A program made the position numbers and the translations under genes. Below are positions 18,573-26,657 of a stretch of 64,000 nucleotides of DNA, in pieces. The notes under the pieces were generated by a model that was given only the letters and a program-made list of their open reading frames with translations, had not been told where the DNA came from and did no database searches. The stretch is from IMG/VR virus record IMGVR_UViG_3300014720_000003, positions 74,481 through 138,480 of that record. The stretch is one strand, 5' to 3'. The DNA comes from a virus. Numbering within the stretch: the stretch's first letter is position 1; every line of letters starts with the position of its first letter.

Positions 18573-18976
18573 TAGGACATCTCTCTTTCTGCATTATTTA
18601 TCCATGCTATGTTTTTTGTGGTAAGAAAATTAGAATATAGATCGAAGATTTGTTGATTTACCTCTTTGAATTCCCATTCTTTTCTACCAATCTTACTCAT
18701 GAATTTATTGTTATTGCCCTCACTATATAGCCCTATTGGATTATACAGTTTGCCGTGTGCTCCAACTTTTACAAAATATCTTTTAGGATTAGTTCCATAC
18801 TGGGAGGATTTTGCTACCACTAATTCATTCTCTTTGTTTGCTCTTGGTTTTTTATTTTCGTCTATAAAGTCGTGATCACCTAATATGGTATAAAAACACT
18901 CTATACGATTAGTGTCCGTAGATGTTGTATTTTGACGATAGATAAATTGATCGGTATCTGTTGTTAATTTGGCCAT
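18572..18976 (-). CDS. Hypothetical protein
   Basis: ORF with coupled overlaps. Confidence 0.55.
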   Translation of the reverse strand: MAKLTTDTDQFIYRQNTTSTDTNRIECFYTILGDHDFIDENKKPRANKENELVVAKSSQYGTNPKRYFVKVGAHGKLYNPIGLYSEGNNNKFMSKIGRKEWEFKEVNQQIFDLYSNFLTTKNIAWINNAEREMS

Positions 18977-19311
18977 ATGGTTTTTGGTCCTTTCTTTATT
19001 CTTGACATTCCTTTTGGTAGGGGTTTTTCCGACTGTTTTTCTTTGTAATCATTATGTTTGGAGTATAATGATGTTTTTTGATCATCGCTCATTCTGTCTC
19101 TATTTCTATTAGCTAAATCTCCTATGGTTTTTAGTTCACTATCTGATTTTCTTACCGATGCTGATTGTGTGGCTAAATCAAGCATATAATCTCTGTGTGT
19201 ATCCGTATTTTTACAGAATGTGCATTTGGGTGATTGCTCGTAATCTTTGATGTAAAAAAACAACTCGAACTGTTTATGACAATGATTACAATGATATGAA
19301 TAGGTTGGCAT
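18964..19311 (-). CDS. FmdB-family Zn-ribbon protein
   Basis: MPTYSYHCNHC...FE...CTFC; likely start at MPTY. Confidence 0.75.
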   Translation of the reverse strand: MPTYSYHCNHCHKQFELFFYIKDYEQSPKCTFCKNTDTHRDYMLDLATQSASVRKSDSELKTIGDLANRNRDRMSDDQKTSLYSKHNDYKEKQSEKPLPKGMSRIKKGPKTIWPN

Positions 19312-19313
19312 AT

Positions 19314-19898
19314 CTACACAATATAAGAATCTGGTAAATAGATAGACCATTCTGGTGGTAGGTCTGTTTTTATTTTAGATAGGTGGTACGAGATTGGCAA
19401 GTATTTGGGACTCTTATTTGGCTTGAATGGTAGCCCTAATAAGGACATATGCGCCTGTTTGGGGGTTCGGTTTCCCTTTTTACGATTACATGATATGCAA
19501 GATGTTACAATATTGGTCCAACAAGTGGGAGAACCATTATCGTTATTCCATATAGATTTCGGAATCACATGATCATAAGTTAATTCATTGTATGTAAAAA
19601 CACTAGAACAATATTGACACGTAAAATTATCTCGTATAAAAATGTTCTTACGAGAGAATGTAACATTTTGTTTATCTATTTTAAAGTATCGTTTGGTCCT
19701 AGCAACTGCTGGTACTGGATATTTTCTGTTGTTTGTTCCATTTATATGATCATCTTTATAGAAATCAATCACATCAATACCATACCTTGGATTGTGTTCG
19801 TATTTCATATACCAAACTATAGCTTTTTGCCAATCAATAATTGATAATGGGCTATAATCAGCATTGAGCAGTAGACATTTACTGTTTTTTAGTCTCAT
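19314..19898 (-). CDS. HNH endonuclease
   Basis: RDNFTCQYC, DHVIP, NIVTSCISCNRKKG. Confidence 0.9.
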   Translation of the reverse strand: MRLKNSKCLLLNADYSPLSIIDWQKAIVWYMKYEHNPRYGIDVIDFYKDDHINGTNNRKYPVPAVARTKRYFKIDKQNVTFSRKNIFIRDNFTCQYCSSVFTYNELTYDHVIPKSIWNNDNGSPTCWTNIVTSCISCNRKKGNRTPKQAHMSLLGLPFKPNKSPKYLPISYHLSKIKTDLPPEWSIYLPDSYIV

Positions 19899-20610
19899 CT
19901 TCTAAAAACTCTAATCTTAGTAGAATCTTAGCAATAATTGGATTTCTAACAATATCCCCATATTCTAGTCTGGAAAGTCCTATGCTGTCCACACCATCGA
20001 GGGCTTTAATTAAATCCAAAAATCCGCCACGGAAATTCCTTGGCAAATCAGACTGACTAATATCTCCTGTTAATACCATTTTACTGTTGTTTCCTATGCG
20101 TGTCAACAACATTTTTAATTGATCATACGAAGCATTCTGGCACTCATCTGCTACTATAAAGCTATTGTGAAAGTTTCGTCCTCTCATTAATCCCAAGGGG
20201 ACTATCTCAATTTTATTATTAAGCTTTAATGCCGCATAATGACTCACAGGAATAAAATGCAATATTTCATCTAGTATTGGCAATAGGTAAGGATGTAATT
20301 TTTCCTCTGCTGTACCAGGAAGATATCCTATTTTCTCTCCGCTCTCTACTACTGGTCTGGTTATAATAATTTTTTTTATTTTATCATCTAATAGATATTC
20401 CAGAGCCATACCTATAGCAATATGTGTTTTACCACTTCCAGCCACGCCCTGACAAAACGTGATAGTATTTTCTGCTACTGTTCTTATATAATCTTTTTGA
20501 TTATCTGATCGTGGTCTTAATCTATTACGATATAGTGGACCACTCGATTCAATATCGTTTGTAGCATCTATAACCTTAGACTTTCTCTTATCTTTGTTGT
20601 TCTTTCTCAA
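19879..20610 (-). CDS. phoH: PhoH-family ATPase
   Basis: GVAGSGKT, GYLPG, MRGR, DECQN, GDISQSD. Confidence 0.93.
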   Translation of the reverse strand: MRKNNKDKRKSKVIDATNDIESSGPLYRNRLRPRSDNQKDYIRTVAENTITFCQGVAGSGKTHIAIGMALEYLLDDKIKKIIITRPVVESGEKIGYLPGTAEEKLHPYLLPILDEILHFIPVSHYAALKLNNKIEIVPLGLMRGRNFHNSFIVADECQNASYDQLKMLLTRIGNNSKMVLTGDISQSDLPRNFRGGFLDLIKALDGVDSIGLSRLEYGDIVRNPIIAKILLRLEFLEDETKKQ

Positions 20611-20634: not shown

Positions 20635-23600
20635 TTAAATTAAGCAAGCGCCGCCGGCACAACTAATCTCTTCTATTCCAGCAGTATTATCCTCTGTTTC
20701 TAATAGTTGTGTATAATCAACCTTTTTATAGCTGTCATATAAATCACAATATATTTTCCAGTTATAAACATCCTTCATACAGTAAGTCAATCTCCTTACA
20801 TCCCCATTAAAATATTTACCAGCAAAATTCTTCATCTTTGTGGTGAATAATAGCTTTTCCTTAGTGTCGTTTTCTTTAGCTTGATTCATATTCACATAAT
20901 CACAAGCAGCCCAAAGATTATTATCAAAAGCATTTAGTCCAAGTTCTATTAATCCAGAGCACCATAACGCAGCATCTCCGTATTCTTTTACTATTTCTCT
21001 GCTTGTGTAAACAGTGGTGAACGGTGCTTGAGGGTAATCTTTATCTCCGCTTTGTGGAATTAAACTAATACCAGCAAAATATTTACGATTATCATAAATA
21101 TATTTTGTTACCTGTTCCCATTCATCTGGTTTTACTGTAACAGTATTACTAACATTATGACTAAGATAATCTTGAGTACATAATGATTTATTCTTACCAG
21201 AGTGTACCCAATTCTTTTGAGTATCCTTTACGATAGAGAGCATATCCACAGCGGGAAGTTGATTCTTGGTTTTGGCTCCGTCGGGAACTTCAATTGGAAA
21301 TTTAACTACCTCATCAGTATTATTTGCTGACCAGCGAGATTTTTCGCACGCTTGTGGGTTATAATTCTTAAAGTGCTGGTATGGTGCTTCTAAAACATTA
21401 GCCTGCACATGGCGTATATAGCGTTTAGCGTGATGAGGATGGATGCCAGAACTAGTCCCGAGCATACTGCTGCTTGTGCCCTCTGGTTTTAAACACGTTA
21501 CTCTAGCAGCTTGATTAATACCGAGTTTTTTAGCAAATTCTTTATTGGTTTCTATGGTCATTTTAGCACCAGCCTTTAGAACCTTTTCTGATAAAACTAG
21601 ATCATATTTTTCCATAGTGCCAGTTAACGAAACGCCCAATAAAGATTCTCTTTCAAAGATGCGGCAACTAATATCGCCTAGATAATCTAACTTTGTAAAG
21701 CCTGCTTGTAATGTTCCTATAATCGCAGCAGCTTTACATCTTTCATAAAAATCAGATTCATCCTCTATAGATGAACAATTAATAGTAGATAGATTACACC
21801 CTTGCCATCCACTCTTACCGCTCTCCTCATCAACAGGCCACATACCCACTTCCACACACCTTCGTGATGTTATGCCATTAACTATCATGGTGCGTCTACT
21901 ATTTTCTGTTAAACAATAAACGTCTTGCTTTCCGATGTAAGTTATTTTTTTTACAAATGAACTAAATCTATTCGTTAATCTAAATGTTTGCCTATCTTTA
22001 AGAACCTCCTTAATTCTATTTATGTCTTTTATATGCAAACTAGCAAAACCTATCAAATTATAACAATTATTTTGTCCACCAATAATAAGCCTATAACTAG
22101 TTTGTGTAGAATAATATTTATTGTTTCTGTCGCCATCTGGCAAAAGCGCTTTACCTGCTTTTCTAGATATATTTATTCTGGCAAATACCCCAAGCTCCTG
22201 TAAAATTAATTGTATATCCATCAATGCGCTTATGTTAACAGACGATAATCTCATACTTAGAGATTTTGATTTTTCATTATATTCAGAATGCCCATCGGAA
22301 TAAAGCATTCCAGAAACAAATCCAGCTTTAAAGTTTTTAGATGTTTTATGTATAAAACTAATATCGTCTTTGATGGACGGAATTCCTTTTGTGTTTAAAT
22401 ATTTATTTAGAGCGGTACTTTCTAGGGACCATTTTGGCTTTGATCCATAAATTTTATCTTCTAAACAAGAAAATTTTGGTTCAAGATTTTGATTATATGT
22501 CAATAAGTCTTTATCTAATTGGCTAATGAAGTATTTTACATAGGTTTCGGTTTCTGATATTTGAGACTCTAGTTCCGCCGCCGTACCCCAAAAATTTATT
22601 CTGCAAGAACTATATTTAGAAATAAAACAACCGTCTCCATGAATAAGACCAACTAAATAACCCAATTTAAAATCGTCGCTATTTTTATCAGAAGTATATG
22701 GTTCAGAGATTGGGATTAAGATTTCATCTTCACTTGTTAGGTCTTTTAATTCCACCATTCCGTGTCTTGTTGCAAAATGATGGTTGCTTGTAGCTTTTAC
22801 TTTTCTTCCACAAGTCAGTTCTAACTCATAAACGTCTCTATCAATGCCGGTTTTTCTGGCGTTAGAAGCTGTATTAATAATATTAGCGTTTGGAATATCC
22901 ATATTAACAGCCCAGTGTTCCTGACCATCTTGCATATATCCAAATACACGACTGTCTTGCTCTATATCAAATGATTGTGTGTCTAAAAGATCTTTAAATT
23001 CAGTCCAGCCATGAGTTGTCAAAACTTTTGTGTCAATTGTTACGCACGGATTGAAAGTCATCTCTGTAGAATCGCTCCAAATAAATCCAGGTTCACCAAA
23101 CTCTTTAACACTTTCCATTAAGGTTTGAAATTCTTCGTATGTGGTAGAATCTTTTAATAAAAGAGCAGAGTTGTTGCTTCGTGCTCTTTGGGGATTTTCC
23201 AGATACCAGTTACCAGTTTTAGCCTTGGCCATTTCTTCATCATCATGACTAAACAACGCTAAACTAGCAGATCGTCTAACCCCACCACTCAACACAGCAT
23301 CACTACTGTGCATCACTATATCATAAGCATCAATTGGTCGTAGTTTCTTTTGACCATTGGATACACAACGATCTAACAATACTCTTATTTTTTCTAATCC
23401 TTTAGCAAGAGGTTCGAATCCTGGGGCTTTTCCAACACCAGAACTAAGATTTGATCCTTGTGGACGAATATTACTATAATCAAATAGTATATGACAATTT
23501 TTGTATTGTTTAAATTCTTCTACTGGTTTACTAAAATAACTACTTAATAAGACTCCTAGAGCATCCGCCCACCCTTCTATGCTATCTTCTATAACATAAA

Positions 23601-24015
23601 CAGTGCCTTTATCCTCTGGAGGATTGTGTTCCAGAGTTGGTAATTTGGAAACGTGGTGTTTTTGCACACTAAATCCTGTGCCACTACCACACAATAATAA
23701 CCAAAAGCATTCTTGAAAAAATCGTAATCTATCACAATAGGAACTTGTGCAATTATAGATTTTGGCGTGACGTTTTAGAATTGGTTCGCCACCAAATTGC
23801 AATCCTCTTTGTGAGCCAAGAACTTTTTTCTTATACATCATATCATATGCCCAATCAATATCTGTTGATATTCCTTTGTCGGCATACATAGAGTGCATCA
23901 TATTTCGCACACGATCAACAGCTTCTTTCCAAGTTTCTCTGCGATTTTTATCTTCTAACCAACGAGCATATTTACTAACAAATGTATAATTCTGAAGTTC
24001 TTGAAGTGCTGACAT
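20635..24015 (-). CDS. nrdJ: Class II (B12-dependent, RTPR-like) ribonucleotide reductase precursor with intein
   Basis: YNC, GGVRRSA, NP/CVE, CNL, KPEGT, C-terminal CAGGAC. Confidence 0.9.
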   Translation of the reverse strand: MSALQELQNYTFVSKYARWLEDKNRRETWKEAVDRVRNMMHSMYADKGISTDIDWAYDMMYKKKVLGSQRGLQFGGEPILKRHAKIYNCTSSYCDRLRFFQECFWLLLCGSGTGFSVQKHHVSKLPTLEHNPPEDKGTVYVIEDSIEGWADALGVLLSSYFSKPVEEFKQYKNCHILFDYSNIRPQGSNLSSGVGKAPGFEPLAKGLEKIRVLLDRCVSNGQKKLRPIDAYDIVMHSSDAVLSGGVRRSASLALFSHDDEEMAKAKTGNWYLENPQRARSNNSALLLKDSTTYEEFQTLMESVKEFGEPGFIWSDSTEMTFNPCVTIDTKVLTTHGWTEFKDLLDTQSFDIEQDSRVFGYMQDGQEHWAVNMDIPNANIINTASNARKTGIDRDVYELELTCGRKVKATSNHHFATRHGMVELKDLTSEDEILIPISEPYTSDKNSDDFKLGYLVGLIHGDGCFISKYSSCRINFWGTAAELESQISETETYVKYFISQLDKDLLTYNQNLEPKFSCLEDKIYGSKPKWSLESTALNKYLNTKGIPSIKDDISFIHKTSKNFKAGFVSGMLYSDGHSEYNEKSKSLSMRLSSVNISALMDIQLILQELGVFARINISRKAGKALLPDGDRNNKYYSTQTSYRLIIGGQNNCYNLIGFASLHIKDINRIKEVLKDRQTFRLTNRFSSFVKKITYIGKQDVYCLTENSRRTMIVNGITSRRCVEVGMWPVDEESGKSGWQGCNLSTINCSSIEDESDFYERCKAAAIIGTLQAGFTKLDYLGDISCRIFERESLLGVSLTGTMEKYDLVLSEKVLKAGAKMTIETNKEFAKKLGINQAARVTCLKPEGTSSSMLGTSSGIHPHHAKRYIRHVQANVLEAPYQHFKNYNPQACEKSRWSANNTDEVVKFPIEVPDGAKTKNQLPAVDMLSIVKDTQKNWVHSGKNKSLCTQDYLSHNVSNTVTVKPDEWEQVTKYIYDNRKYFAGISLIPQSGDKDYPQAPFTTVYTSREIVKEYGDAALWCSGLIELGLNAFDNNLWAACDYVNMNQAKENDTKEKLLFTTKMKNFAGKYFNGDVRRLTYCMKDVYNWKIYCDLYDSYKKVDYTQLLETEDNTAGIEEISCAGGACLI
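21859..23046 (-). mobile_element. 396-aa intein with LAGLIDADG homing endonuclease
   Basis: Splits the NPCVE motif; Cys1 (CVTIDT), block B TSNH, LVGLIHGDG and VSGMLYSDG, block F VYCLTE, ends NGITSRR before Cys+1. Confidence 0.9.
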
Positions 24016-24016
24016 C

Positions 24017-24157
24017 TTATCTCCTATTGAGCATTATTAACGAAAATATCCCCAACACTACAACACTTTCAAATGATTGTTGTTGCATATGGGGGTTCTG
24101 AGTTATGAGACTATAAACATAAATACCTAATGAAACATAAAACGATATTAATATCAT
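24017..24157 (-). CDS. 46-aa membrane peptide (absent from ORF track)
   Basis: MILISFYVSLGIYVY...; ATGA overlap, fills the gap up to the nrdJ RBS. Confidence 0.5.
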   Translation of the reverse strand: MILISFYVSLGIYVYSLITQNPHMQQQSFESVVVLGIFSLIMLNRR

Positions 24158-24624
24158 AATACACCGCACAGTTGTTTCAGCCACGAAAGATCTGGTTCAA
24201 CATATTCTATTTCTATACCACTCATACTAACAAAAGTATCAAATATTTTTTGAGCTTTTTCATCAAAAAGGTGTGTGCCGTGATTGTTTGTCATAACTAC
24301 TTTTCTAACTCCTTCTTGCCATAGGGCCATAATGCAATCGTTACACGATTGACCAGTAACATATGCTATCCCATTTTCTGGTCGTATAGTACAATTAGAT
24401 AGAGCATTACGTTCAGCGTGAATCATCCACGGATATTTGTCTGGTCTACTGTTTGGTAATAGGGTATCATCCAAACCGCGAGGAAATCCGTTGTATCCTA
24501 ATCCTAAAATCCTATTATTAGAATCTGTGATTACACAACCGTGTTGTGTTTGAACATCATGGCTACGTTGAGAAACAACTTTAGCCAATCCTAAAAAATA
24601 ATCTGTCCAGATGGGTCTGCTCAT
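24154..24624 (-). CDS. dCMP deaminase
   Basis: GYNGFP, HAERNA, SCNDC. Confidence 0.9.
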   Translation of the reverse strand: MSRPIWTDYFLGLAKVVSQRSHDVQTQHGCVITDSNNRILGLGYNGFPRGLDDTLLPNSRPDKYPWMIHAERNALSNCTIRPENGIAYVTGQSCNDCIMALWQEGVRKVVMTNNHGTHLFDEKAQKIFDTFVSMSGIEIEYVEPDLSWLKQLCGVL

Positions 24625-25595: not shown

Positions 25596-25734
25596 TTCGC
25601 TTTCTCCATCGTGGTCTTGGTTTGGGAGTATCATCACCCTTTGGACTTGGACTCCACAATTTAATAATCTTGTATAGAAAATCCAAGAACATTTGAATAG
25701 CACGACCTAATGATATTCTATCAATGAGTTTCAT
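25588..25734 (-). CDS. 48-aa hypothetical protein (absent from ORF track)
   Basis: MKLIDRISLGRAIQ...PKPRPRWRKRNE; overlaps both neighbours. Confidence 0.5.
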   Translation of the reverse strand: MKLIDRISLGRAIQMFLDFLYKIIKLWSPSPKGDDTPKPRPRWRKRNE

Positions 25735-26657
25735 AAGTATTTCTCGAAATCATAGGATGGAAGTTTTTGAACAGGAAAACCATCAAAATTACTAAAAGCA
25801 TAACTACCATTTTGAGCCAACATTTGACCAGCAACATCGGATCGAATTAAAAATGAGCCGTCTGGAATTGGACCCCATTCTGGATGACCACCATCATTCC
25901 ACTTACCCCAACTATTTTGCACAAGAAACAATGGTTCGCTTCCAGTATCATCACATGCTATCCAAGCCATACAATGAGCCCAACTACCACTAACATTAGT
26001 TACACCGTTCTTATCTCGTTTGTTACTAAAGCCAAAACTAGAGCATACGGCTAATCCATAACCATTAGCCAGAGCGTCTCGTGCTTCATCTACTGTGCGT
26101 ACCAAACTTACTGTTTTTATTTGATGATCATTGGCCAGATCTATTACTTTATCTGGTAATCCTCGACCACCCCAGTTTGTGCCAATAGTACTATTATATT
26201 TGGTAAAATCGGCTATTCCCTTGTAATCTTTACGAACCAGAATGCCACCATTTTTACTCACAAATTCGGCCGCTCTAGCACAACTCATTCCCTGACCACT
26301 ATGGCCTCTAGCACCATAAATAGCTTCTGTTGCGCCTCGTGCTACCCAACCCTCTCTTTGTTTATGAATATCAATCTCTACTGCTCGACTAACATCACAC
26401 GCATTTCGTGTTCCGTGTGAAACACAATCTCCAACTGTTTGTCTTTCGTTATAGGGACTCTTATCAAACTTTAACACACTTTTGTACGGAGTACTTAGTT
26501 TGCCCTTACCACTATTCTTAATCTTTCTTGCTCCATCAGAGAAATAACCATATTTTGAATGTTCTAATAGTTGTTCATAAATATGTTGTTCAAATAAACA
26601 ACCAGAGAATCCTTTTTTATATAATTGATAAAGATCATTAGGACTAAATTTTGGCAT
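25731..26657 (-). CDS. Papain-like (C1) cysteine peptidase
   Basis: QTVGDCVS, AHCM, QNSWG (Gln/Cys/His/Asn). Confidence 0.8.
   Translation of the reverse strand: MPKFSPNDLYQLYKKGFSGCLFEQHIYEQLLEHSKYGYFSDGARKIKNSGKGKLSTPYKSVLKFDKSPYNERQTVGDCVSHGTRNACDVSRAVEIDIHKQREGWVARGATEAIYGARGHSGQGMSCARAAEFVSKNGGILVRKDYKGIADFTKYNSTIGTNWGGRGLPDKVIDLANDHQIKTVSLVRTVDEARDALANGYGLAVCSSFGFSNKRDKNGVTNVSGSWAHCMAWIACDDTGSEPLFLVQNSWGKWNDGGHPEWGPIPDGSFLIRSDVAGQMLAQNGSYAFSNFDGFPVQKLPSYDFEKYL

Follow-up and report, generated by a model that had tools for sequence, protein, structure and literature searches.

We suggest that the intein interrupting the ribonucleotide reductase (RNR) gene in the window, by which we mean the whole 64,000-nucleotide stretch of phage DNA analysed here, is probably a functional, self-excising element that ends in arginine and resolves its last splicing step in a way not yet described. 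In all described protein-splicing pathways the last residue, Asn in most cases and rarely Gln, Asp or Glu, cyclises at the end, and the family to which this intein belongs has none of these; with Arg as the terminal residue, step 3 cannot be Asn cyclisation. Either Arg performs chemistry with which textbooks do not credit it, or the last bond is cut in another way, by the Cys of block F or in an additional acyl shift. The whole conserved and mobile family shares the Arg end, and its members thus probably excise themselves through chemistry that is still undescribed. Judged from sequence, the intein would be removed from the RNR precursor and its exteins joined.

The interrupted gene and its intein

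The precursor gene and the features on which the argument turns are these:

20635..24015, minus strand: whole precursor, a predicted B12-type (class II-like) RNR with one intein, 1126 aa plus stop (ORF list, translation)
23047..24015, minus strand: N-extein, 323 codons, ending ...STEMTFNP (translation; 79-93% identity to N-exteins of intein-free orthologues)
21859..23046, minus strand: intein, 396 codons, a HINT splicing domain with a LAGLIDADG homing endonuclease inserted (translation, Pfam, AF2, Foldseek, empty sites)
23044..23046, minus strand: Cys1, the N-terminal nucleophile (Cys in 52/52 Arg-ended inteins with an aligned N-junction)
22780..22791, minus strand: block B Thr-x-x-His, within KATSNHHF, intein residues 86-89 (T409/H412 of the precursor; invariant in 24/24 close homologues)
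22627..22668, minus strand: LAGLIDADG motif 1, approximate bounds, with acidic D138 of the intein = D461 of the precursor (G456, D461 and G462 invariant in 24/24)
22288..22329, minus strand: LAGLIDADG motif 2, approximate bounds, with D251 of the intein = D574 (D574 invariant in 24/24, G575 nearly so)
21859..21924, minus strand: blocks F and G, DVYCLTENSRRTMIVNGITSRR (translation and alignment of homologues)
21913..21915, minus strand: Cys378, block F:4 (Cys in 59/59 Arg-ended inteins)
21904..21906, minus strand: Glu381, three residues past F:4 (Glu in 59/59)
21892..21894, minus strand: Arg385, in the block-F His column (Arg in 58 and Lys in 1 of 59)
21862..21864, minus strand: Arg395, penultimate (R 52, A 4, Q 1, V 1, S 1 among 59)
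21859..21861, minus strand: Arg396, C-terminus of the intein, codon AGG (Arg in 59/59)
21856..21858, minus strand: Cys+1, the C-extein nucleophile, which doubles as the Cys in the NPC-x-E motif of the RNR active site (Cys in 195/195 aligned inteins at the RNR site)
20635..21858, minus strand: C-extein, 407 codons plus stop, starting CVEVGMWPVDEE (80-90% identity to intein-free orthologues; dN/dS 0.03-0.06)

With slashes marking the junctions, the precursor reads ...STEMTFNP/CVTIDTK...VYCLTENSRRTMIVNGITSRR/CVEVGMWP, and across the C-terminal junction the codons run ACA TCA CGA AGG / TGT GTG. A preceding sequence-only reading had derived an Arg-Arg end from TCA CGA AGG / TGT GTG, which translation of the ORF bears out. 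It had also held that deletion of the 396 codons restores FNP-CVE; this is the case, and 17 intein-free loci read exactly TFNPCVEV across the insertion site where the window has TFNP, 396 codons and CVEV, so that the boundaries of the insertion are exact. Two other placements of the end were considered and rejected. A shifted boundary, V...RRC (Cys flanks both ends), leaves no +1 nucleophile, and the empty sites fix the length at 396 codons; the Asn of IVNG, taken as the true intein end, is replaced by Glu in most relatives.

The insert matches the Pfam profiles Intein_splicing (PF14890; 43.9 bits against a cut-off of 35.8, E 2.9e-11) and LAGLIDADG_3 (PF14528; 47.2 bits, E 2.8e-12, residues 239-326). 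In the endonuclease that it carries, both LAGLIDADG motifs keep their acidic residues, and the AF2 model of the intein (pLDDT 84.6, pTM 0.87) matches the folds of I-DmoI and PI-SceI in Foldseek. The features of class 1 inteins are present, namely the HINT fold and profile, exact in-frame insertion, Cys1, the block B T-x-x-H and Cys+1, but the terminal residue, which in that class is Asn, Gln, Asp or Glu, is here Arg. The penultimate His and the block-F His are both missing, with Arg in both places. The sequence-only reading had remarked on the lack of these two His and on the integrity of Cys1, TxxH and both LAGLIDADG motifs, and both remarks agree with the translation, the latter also with the Pfam matches and the 24/24 columns. 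Assistance by the penultimate and block-F His is common in inteins and is not obligatory.

The assembly or sequencing error that had been considered for the junction did not occur, and we regard this explanation as refuted. In X3, a freshwater run of 2025 that is independent of the record, a contig (record 6, 21836..22002) spans the C-terminal junction with two differences from the window, at 21877 and 21899, neither of them in the Arg codons, and the same end recurs in 24/24 homologues of separate assemblies and in the DNA of 12 loci. Contigs from two runs, possibly the source of the record, are identical to the window, and runs X3 and X4 cover the stretch in pieces only.

By its motifs and profiles the host protein is predicted to be a B12-type, class II-like RNR. 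In the interrupted protein RNR_Alpha scores 27.7 bits, over its Pfam cut-off, while RNR-II_ins_dom (25.7 bits against 27) and the barrel domain Ribonuc_red_lgC (19.4 bits against 23.9) fall slightly under theirs. The active-site motifs NPC-x-E and C-N-L are present and invariant in 24/24 intein-bearing genes, as are the catalytic extein columns N322, P323, C720, E722, C740, N741 and L742. Cys+1 is, we take it from what is known of class II RNRs, the thiyl-radical Cys of the enzyme. The interrupted gene is the sole RNR match in the phage genome, which is complete at 138,480 bp with terminal repeats and across which no second RNR large subunit, NrdB or NrdD was found. In phages RNR is an auxiliary gene, and its being the only one in the genome is therefore no proof of necessity. 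The phage comes from a lake.

The Arg-ended family and its mobility

A conserved clade of homologues with RR/C ends, one of the outcomes that the sequence-only reading had envisaged, is what the search returned, and close homologues ending in Asn or Gln did not occur: the terminal Arg is invariant in 24/24, which are 38-89% identical to the window intein and far exceed what chance would give, and further Arg-ended loci extend down to 28% identity (L018). An Arg/Cys end is found in 59 of 195 aligned related intein ends (291 domain rows, from which the 96 without C-terminal columns were dropped), and, for the 150 best-matching representatives from a library of 1.84 billion proteins, in 38/149 aligned ends. 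The codon for the terminal Arg turns over, with AGG in four cases (the window and three loci), AGA at eight loci and CGA at one. It had been argued that AGG lies two substitutions from an Asn codon, which is correct; yet a single change turns it into CGG, and one more leads from there to the Gln codon CAG.

The 59 Arg-ended inteins share a signature beyond their last residue: Cys at F:4 and Glu three residues on are found in every one, and the block-F His column holds Arg in 58 and Lys in one. In the 136 Asn/Gln-ended inteins that column never holds Arg (0/136), and F:4 is Cys in 70/136. Since Cys F:4 also occurs in so many Asn/Gln-ended relatives, it is a trait of the wider lineage, not one specific to the Arg ends. 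Cys1, Cys378 and Cys+1 are all invariant in the Arg clade, and block B has its Thr in 51/52 and its His in 52/52 Arg-ended inteins. The penultimate position is A, V, Q or S in 7/59, and the penultimate Arg is hence dispensable.

In a FastTree phylogeny of the 136 of 195 rows that have both junctions and at least 300 residues, computed with the last two residues cut and the block-F column kept, the 52 full-length Arg-ended inteins fall in a single clade (99% local support) whose neighbours are Cys-F:4 inteins with Gln or Asn ends. Four Asn/Gln-ended inteins (P0089, P0099, P0112 and P0146) lie inside this clade, both in the FastTree tree and in a quick IQ-TREE tree. The latter, used for the AU test, had 77 rows, with seven near-duplicate Arg rows and other clades excluded and 28 sister-clade (Cys-F:4) rows as the outgroup. 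A single clade for all Arg-ended inteins was not rejected (p 0.53), and for that reason we make no claim of repeated switching between Arg and Asn/Gln. Co-variation of the terminal Arg with the block-F Arg gave p 0.25 in a sign test on only three independent contrasts, and their coupling may go back to one evolutionary event. Arg also occupies the block-F His column of a solved canonical DnaB mini-intein (6frh alignment), so that a block-F Arg alone is not diagnostic.

Between the window and L008 the intein has a dN/dS of 0.088, with similar values in the N-terminal splicing part (0.097), the endonuclease (0.080) and the C-terminal splicing part (0.097), and the exteins of intein-bearing alleles have a dN/dS of 0.03-0.08. 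Both the intein, in its splicing and endonuclease parts alike, and the exteins are on this measure under strong purifying selection. In the same pair dS is 0.63 in the intein against 1.9-2.5 in the exteins, and third-position identity is 0.74 against 0.54-0.57; in the pair L013 and L016 dS is 0.30 in the intein (dN/dS 0.05) against 0.66 in the N-extein. An intein dS below that of the exteins in two pairs points to recent homing and bears the mark of a recent horizontal spread; the endonuclease dN/dS and the joint occurrence of empty and occupied alleles bear on homing activity only indirectly.

Intein-free, canonical-intein and Arg-intein alleles co-exist at the RNR site. In run X3 a joint that skips 1188 bases stands beside the Arg-intein allele; a single contig of low depth carries it, and an allele without the intein is its best reading. 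A loose end at the site in the same run looks, by eye, like a canonical ...VYVHN intein end. We also considered translational bypass or excision at the DNA level as a path to a working RNR and set both aside, the insert being an in-frame ORF under purifying selection.

Relation to known inteins

The list of terminal intein residues in the available text of a review (PMC4031507) comprises Asn, Gln, Asp and Glu. The non-Asn-ended inteins of that review resemble the window intein in Cys1, the +1 nucleophile, the HINT fold and a non-Asn end, and the CIV example also sits in an RNR; the window intein differs in an end that is off the list and in having Arg for both His. The glutarimide of Gln-ended inteins is a six-membered ring, and an Arg lactam would equal it in size if Arg cyclises through N-epsilon. 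A further comparison is with the sister metagenomic inteins, for example P0083, P0088, P0110 and P0116, which match an Arg-clade profile at up to E 1e-65 and share with the Arg-ended inteins the RNR NPC/C site, the architecture, the Cys at F:4 and a Glu or Gln three residues on, but end in Gly-Gln or Gly-Asn and have His or Asn in the block-F His column. A canonical intein at the loci L033 and L034 (...VYVHN/CVEV) has the same insertion point, domain layout and phage group, and its exteins are 80-86% identical to those of the window, whereas the intein itself is only 26-27% identical and has the textbook set of Asp at F:4, the block-F His and a His-Asn end.

Among solved LAGLIDADG inteins, the best Foldseek matches of the AF2 model are TliVMA (7qss, E 5e-18), the RNR intein PI-PfuI (1dq3) and PI-SceI (1ef0), which share its two-domain fold at E 5e-18 to 6e-12 and a TM of about 0.55, with a sequence identity of 10-16%; all three are presumably canonical and Asn-ended. 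The nearest matches in cultured phages are the LAGLIDADG-bearing inteins of SPbeta-like Bacillus/Staphylococcus phage RNRs (the bnrdE intein of SPBc2), at 25-29% identity over 99% of the query and in a class Ib RNR. Megablast of 21500..23400 gave no match among cultured phages, in which tblastn found only inteins below 30% identity. Bacterial intein-like (BIL) domains are HINT domains that lie in variable, non-conserved protein regions and lack a homing endonuclease; the window intein interrupts a conserved enzyme at one of its catalytic residues and carries a LAGLIDADG domain, neither of which fits that assignment.

Class 3 inteins, whose prototype is that of mycobacteriophage Bethlehem DnaB (PMC2807308), are alike in the Cys at F:4 and in phage origin. 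As the accessible part of that paper describes them, they have no N-terminal nucleophile, a triplet of Trp (B:12), Cys (F:4) and Thr (block G), Ser or Thr at +1, and an Asn end (PMC2807308). The window intein, in contrast, has Cys1 (52/52 in the clade), Phe at B:12 (NHHF), Ser in block G (Ala in relatives), Cys at +1 and an Arg end. Full-text searches brought up no paper about an Arg-ended intein, although subscription papers, InBase and supplementary tables could list some. Prediction pipelines that demand a terminal Asn or Gln would miss or mis-call such inteins.

Candidate routes for the last cleavage

In the scheme that we propose, splicing would begin with the standard N-S acyl shift at Cys1 and continue with the standard trans-thioesterification to Cys+1. 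In step 3, N-epsilon of the terminal Arg would attack the residue's own backbone carbonyl, leaving a six-membered N-amidino lactam and a freed Cys+1 amine, while three neighbours, namely the Arg of the block-F column, the residue before the end, which is usually basic, and the invariant Glu, would make the guanidinium less basic by lowering its pKa, take up its proton and steady the oxyanion. This lactam route, with an Arg/Glu set replacing the two canonical His as its activator, is our leading guess for step 3 and the most likely mechanism, and we advance it tentatively. N-epsilon of Arg occupies the same side-chain position as N-epsilon-2 of Gln, the lactam would be an isostere of the glutarimide that Gln-ended sister inteins form, and, with sister inteins ending in Gln or Asn, a change from Gln (CAR) to Arg (CGR) takes one substitution. 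Against it counts the fact that a guanidinium at neutral pH is a very poor nucleophile, and Arg delta-lactam formation is known to us only from activated Arg in peptide synthesis. Cyclisation of Arg, if true, would to our knowledge be the first natural peptide-bond cleavage of that sort; the lactam route would add a fourth way of resolving the branch to those of Asn, Gln and Asp/Glu, and an entire mobile family of RNR inteins, in phages and bacteria, would use it. In the accessible text of two sources, Gln, Asp and Glu ends take the same step, by cyclisation, and the terminal residue is helped to cyclise by the His of blocks F and G (PMC4031507, PMC7765530).

The bond might be cut by one of the invariant cysteines instead. 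Cys378 could cleave between Arg396 and Cys+1 in the manner of a cysteine protease, forming an internal thioester that is later hydrolysed, with the Arg residues merely binding or polarising the scissile carbonyl. The unbroken occurrence of Cys at F:4 in the Arg-ended inteins, set against its occurrence in about half of the others, speaks for this, as do the proven nucleophilicity of the class 3 F:4 Cys (PMC2807308) and the influence of F:4 on reactions at both junctions (PMC2807308, PMC4031507, in the parts available). We nevertheless consider it unlikely, since Cys F:4 is not specific to the Arg ends, the route leaves unexplained why the last residue should be Arg and never another in 59/59, and the hallmarks of class 3 are missing, with Cys1 present, Phe at B:12 and Cys at +1. 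A further N-to-S acyl shift, this time at the bond between Arg396 and Cys+1, in which the Cys+1 sulfur takes the intein C-terminus and the freed Cys+1 amine (or a relay via Cys378 or water) completes ligation with the N-extein thioester, seems more doubtful still. Three invariant cysteines would be at hand, that at +1 in all 195 inteins at the site, and an N-S shift at Xaa-Cys is already the N-terminal chemistry of every intein (PMC4031507, available text), but the accessible parts of PMC4031507, PMC7765530 and PMC2807308 hold no precedent for it, and an invariant Arg is not accounted for by a Cys+1 that all the Asn/Gln-ended relatives also have, although their last residue can still cyclise.

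It is very improbable that a host or phage protease cuts the bond after Arg(-Arg) in trans, with either the precursor or the branched intermediate as its substrate. In 52/59 inteins the bond follows a basic or dibasic site, and a papain-like (C1A) peptidase is encoded 1.7 kb away (25731..26657), but such a peptidase occurs in 4/11 Arg-intein loci against 22/99 other loci, and the penultimate residue may be A, V, Q or S. Within 10 kb on either side and for the genes of the window, RNR is the only gene common to all 11 Arg-intein loci and no neighbouring gene tracks the Arg-ended inteins, so that the assistance in trans raised by the sequence-only reading finds no support. A helper may be encoded elsewhere or by the host; it would have to be universal, since the Arg clade is spread over RNRs of differing type and over highly dissimilar contigs. 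Just as improbable, in our view, is that the intein stays in place, so that a selfish homing element would carry along an RNR allele that does not function or is switched off. Such an allele would sit with the auxiliary character of phage RNRs (general knowledge). It would also sit with the fact that no intein chemistry described in the available text of PMC4031507 and PMC7765530 fits an Arg end. Against it stand the strong purifying selection on the exteins (dN/dS 0.03-0.08) and on the splicing domain (0.10), the catalytic columns invariant in 24/24, the status of the gene as sole RNR, and an Arg invariant over a deep clade, unlike what is seen in a decaying element. An invariant Arg in a divergent clade whose codons turn over synonymously is not a dead allele, and that earlier suggestion is refuted. 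With the dead allele gone and help in trans unsupported, what is left of the proposals in the sequence-only reading is new branch-resolution chemistry, which is, as we infer, the most likely.

A new C-terminal cleavage chemistry, possibly tunable by pH or redox state, would be useful in intein-based protein engineering. The family holds dozens of natural variants: some have Ala, Val, Gln or Ser as the penultimate residue, and near relatives end in Asn or Gln.

The Arg-Arg end and its boundaries

The gene concerned and the intein within it lie as follows.

20635..24015, minus strand, RNR precursor ORF of 1126 codons (ORF list and translation)
21859..23046, minus strand, intein of 396 codons

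In translation the N-terminal junction of the intein reads ...STEMTFNP|CVTIDTK... and the C-terminal junction, 396 codons on, ...DVYCLTENSRRTMIVNGITSRR|CVEVGMWPVDEE...; the junction codons TCA CGA AGG | TGT GTG, and with them the Arg-Arg end reported in the sequence-only reading, are borne out. Intein-free orthologues with exteins (the flanking RNR parts) 79-93% identical to those of the window read TFNPCVEVGMWPVDEE at the site, with TFNPCVEV found exactly in 17 intein-free loci. Since these sites read through without the insert, it runs from Cys1 to Arg396, and Cys+1 directly after it is the cysteine in the RNR motif NPC-x-E. Pfam assigns the insert an intein splicing domain together with a LAGLIDADG domain, and the flanks RNR_Alpha plus, slightly below cut-off in the interrupted protein, the RNR barrel and a class II insertion domain. 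An AlphaFold2 model of the intein, built on a 10-sequence alignment (pLDDT 84.6, pTM 0.87), is matched by the solved two-domain inteins TliVMA 7qss (E 5e-18), PI-PfuI and PI-SceI.

Assembly error at the Arg codons is refuted by an independent freshwater metagenome run (X3), in which a contig spanning 21836..22002 crosses the junction with two differences from the window and the Arg codons unaffected; contigs from two further runs, possibly the source runs, are identical to the window. Run X3 also contains an empty-site allele, in a single contig of depth 2.7 that skips exactly 1188 bases, and at 21858 a loose end that reads by eye as the ...VYVHN end of a canonical intein. Three alleles of site 21856-23046 (Arg-ended intein, empty, canonical intein) thus appear within one lake metagenome run. 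At the identical NP|C site two related loci (L033:1165-4443 and L034:9992-13279; exteins 80-86% identical to the window's) carry a different, textbook intein, 26-27% identical to the window's, with Asp at F:4, the block-F His and the end ...VYVHN|C, so that a single homing site is contested by two intein lineages.

A conserved family of Arg-ended inteins

Viral, metagenome and genome collections yielded 192 loci, and a separate search for longer proteins gave 23 further RNRs with an intein of this type (89-38% identity over the full intein length). Together with the window's own this makes 24, each of which ends in Arg|Cys (RR 22, AR 2), which answers the earlier question of a conserved clade ending RR/C; the 25 weaker matches have HN, GQ, GN, SN or LN ends and never Arg. 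Both LAGLIDADG acidic residues and all catalytic extein columns are invariant across the 24 aligned genes. The terminal Arg is encoded by AGG in the window and in 3 loci, by AGA in 8 and by CGA in 1, a synonymous turnover with the residue retained, and another RNR (L018) houses an Arg-ended intein only 28% identical to the window's.

A profile of 10 Arg-ended inteins drew 7509 matches at E<=1e-3 (603 at E<=1e-30) from 1.84 billion representative proteins; C-ends within the best 150 of the 7509 comprise 38 Arg, 62 Asn and 49 Gln, and the 195 C-ends aligned from all proteins collected 59, 84 and 52, respectively. At least 9 of 10 Arg-clade representatives looked up are metagenomic. Five of eight submitted to Pfam have class II RNR_Alpha and insertion domains, the other three showing an all-alpha and barrel layout, an ATP-cone alone and intein domains alone (one each). 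One aligned protein, P0007, carries upstream of its Arg-ended intein a second one (residues 341-392) with a canonical Gly-Asn|Cys end, and both end types therefore occur in one protein; P0010 and P0011, like P0007 about 1419 aa, probably contain a second upstream intein as well. In four loci (L012, L016, L017, L019) the RNR frame is interrupted after the intein and taken up again by another ORF, about 320-330 aa long and starting about 0.8 kb downstream in L016 and L017, which suggests a further insertion in the C-extein (intron, free-standing endonuclease gene or frameshift).

Residues at aligned intein C-ends, 59 Arg-ended versus 136 Asn/Gln-ended
Block F:4: Cys 59/59; Cys 70/136
F:4 plus three residues: Glu 59/59; Glu 44, Gln 48, Val 33, other 11
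Block-F His column: Arg 58, Lys 1; Arg 0, Lys 1
Penultimate residue: R 52, A 4, Q 1, V 1, S 1; mostly His or Gly
+1 residue: Cys 59/59; Cys 136/136

In a gapless alignment to canonical ends, the block-F His is matched by Arg385, the penultimate His by Arg395 and the Asn by Arg396. Arg-ended inteins with an aligned N-terminal part retain Cys1 (52/52), the block B Thr (51/52) and the block B His (52/52). The association of block-F Arg with terminal Arg is perfect, yet it comes from three independent contrasts only (p 0.25), and a solved canonical DnaB mini-intein (PDB 6frh/6frg; ...LTVPGLRNFVAN...) has Arg aligned to the same column, which shows that Arg at this position can coexist with an ordinary Asn end and is not unique to the Arg-ended family. 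Penultimate Arg also precedes terminal Gln (...RQ|C; P0089, P0102, P0179) and terminal Asn (...RN|C; P0112, P0122, P0169, P0188), and such inteins may be intermediates toward the Arg-Arg end.

In a FastTree phylogeny built from 136 full-length inteins after trimming of their last two residues, all 52 Arg-ended rows fall within one clade (local support 99%) that also includes 3 Asn-ended rows and 1 Gln-ended row and is neighboured by Cys-F:4 inteins with Gln or Asn ends. A quick IQ-TREE of 77 rows agrees, and an AU test did not reject a single clade of Arg-ended rows (p 0.53); we therefore claim at least one origin of the Arg end, not repeated switching.

Selection and the probable release of the C-terminal bond

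Divergence in two pairs of loci
Window vs L008, whole intein: dN/dS 0.088, dS 0.63, third-position identity 0.74
Window vs L008, intein parts: dN/dS N-splicing 0.097, endonuclease 0.080, C-splicing 0.097
Window vs L008, exteins: dN/dS 0.03-0.08, dS 1.9-2.5, third-position identity 0.54-0.57
L013 vs L016, intein: dN/dS 0.05, dS 0.30
L013 vs L016, N-extein: dS 0.66

Intein dS is below extein dS, and the intein is therefore younger than the gene around it, the trace expected from homing, and it is kept up by selection. The sequence-only reading had offered a dead allele, assistance in trans or new branch-resolution chemistry. The dead allele falls to the family-wide Arg end, the synonymous codon turnover and the purifying selection on intein and exteins; trans help is unsupported; new chemistry at step 3, the release of the intein C-terminal bond, is the best reading left, unproven.

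Of the sequence features tested for Class 1 inteins, the intein lacks a cyclising end residue and the two helper His and shares all the others. A Class 3 assignment was rejected: unlike that class, as outlined in excerpts of PMC2807308, the intein has Cys both at position 1 and at +1, its B:12 residue is Phe, and Ser/Ala takes the place of the block G Thr; identity as a BIL domain was likewise rejected. Excerpts of reviews (PMC4031507, PMC7765530) limit the cyclising ends to Asn, Gln, Asp and Glu, assisted by the block-F and penultimate His. A full-text literature search, with subscription literature, InBase and supplements outside its scope, returned no report of an Arg-ended intein.

Nothing unusual would be needed for steps 1 and 2 (N-S acyl shift at Cys1, transfer to Cys+1). 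For step 3 our leading hypothesis, a tentative one, is cyclisation of the Arg itself. Activated Arg forms a delta-lactam in peptide synthesis. Arg N-epsilon sits at the side-chain position of Gln N-epsilon-2, and its attack on its own carbonyl would therefore close a six-membered, glutarimide-like ring; the extra Arg residue or residues and the invariant Glu could reduce the guanidinium pKa, deprotonate the guanidinium and stabilise the oxyanion. The neighbour clades are Gln- or Asn-ended, and CAR-to-CGR is a single substitution.

Attack on the C-terminal bond by the F:4 Cys we consider unlikely, and a second N-S shift, at Arg-Cys+1, distinctly improbable. Cleavage at the intein end by a protease in trans is hard to credit: among the window's genes, compared within 10 kb on either side, no neighbour common to all 11 Arg-intein loci was found, and the C1A peptidase encoded near the RNR gene, with homologues in 4/11 Arg-intein loci versus 22/99 other loci, is not tied to the intein. 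That there is no excision whatever seems scarcely probable. The phage genome is a complete virus record (138,480 bp, terminal repeats) in which no second RNR large subunit, NrdB, NrdD or second intein was found, and from RNR architecture one would expect a 396-residue insert left in place beside the active-site Cys to abolish enzyme activity. Selection on exteins and splicing domain, with the insert at that Cys, therefore argues that the intein leaves the RNR precursor. What probability remains beside Arg cyclisation and these rivals we assign to further self-catalysed routes, of kinds not conceived here.

Neighbouring genes

Neighbours of the RNR gene were viewed by eye over 18964-20610 and 24154-24624 (minus strand), which yielded the three candidates below; the peptidase lies 1.7 kb upstream of the RNR gene.

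19314..19898, minus strand, candidate HNH-type endonuclease (by eye only)
19879..20610, minus strand, candidate PhoH-type ATPase (by eye only)
24154..24624, minus strand, candidate dCMP deaminase (by eye only)
25731-26657, minus strand, papain-like (C1A) peptidase ORF, 308 aa
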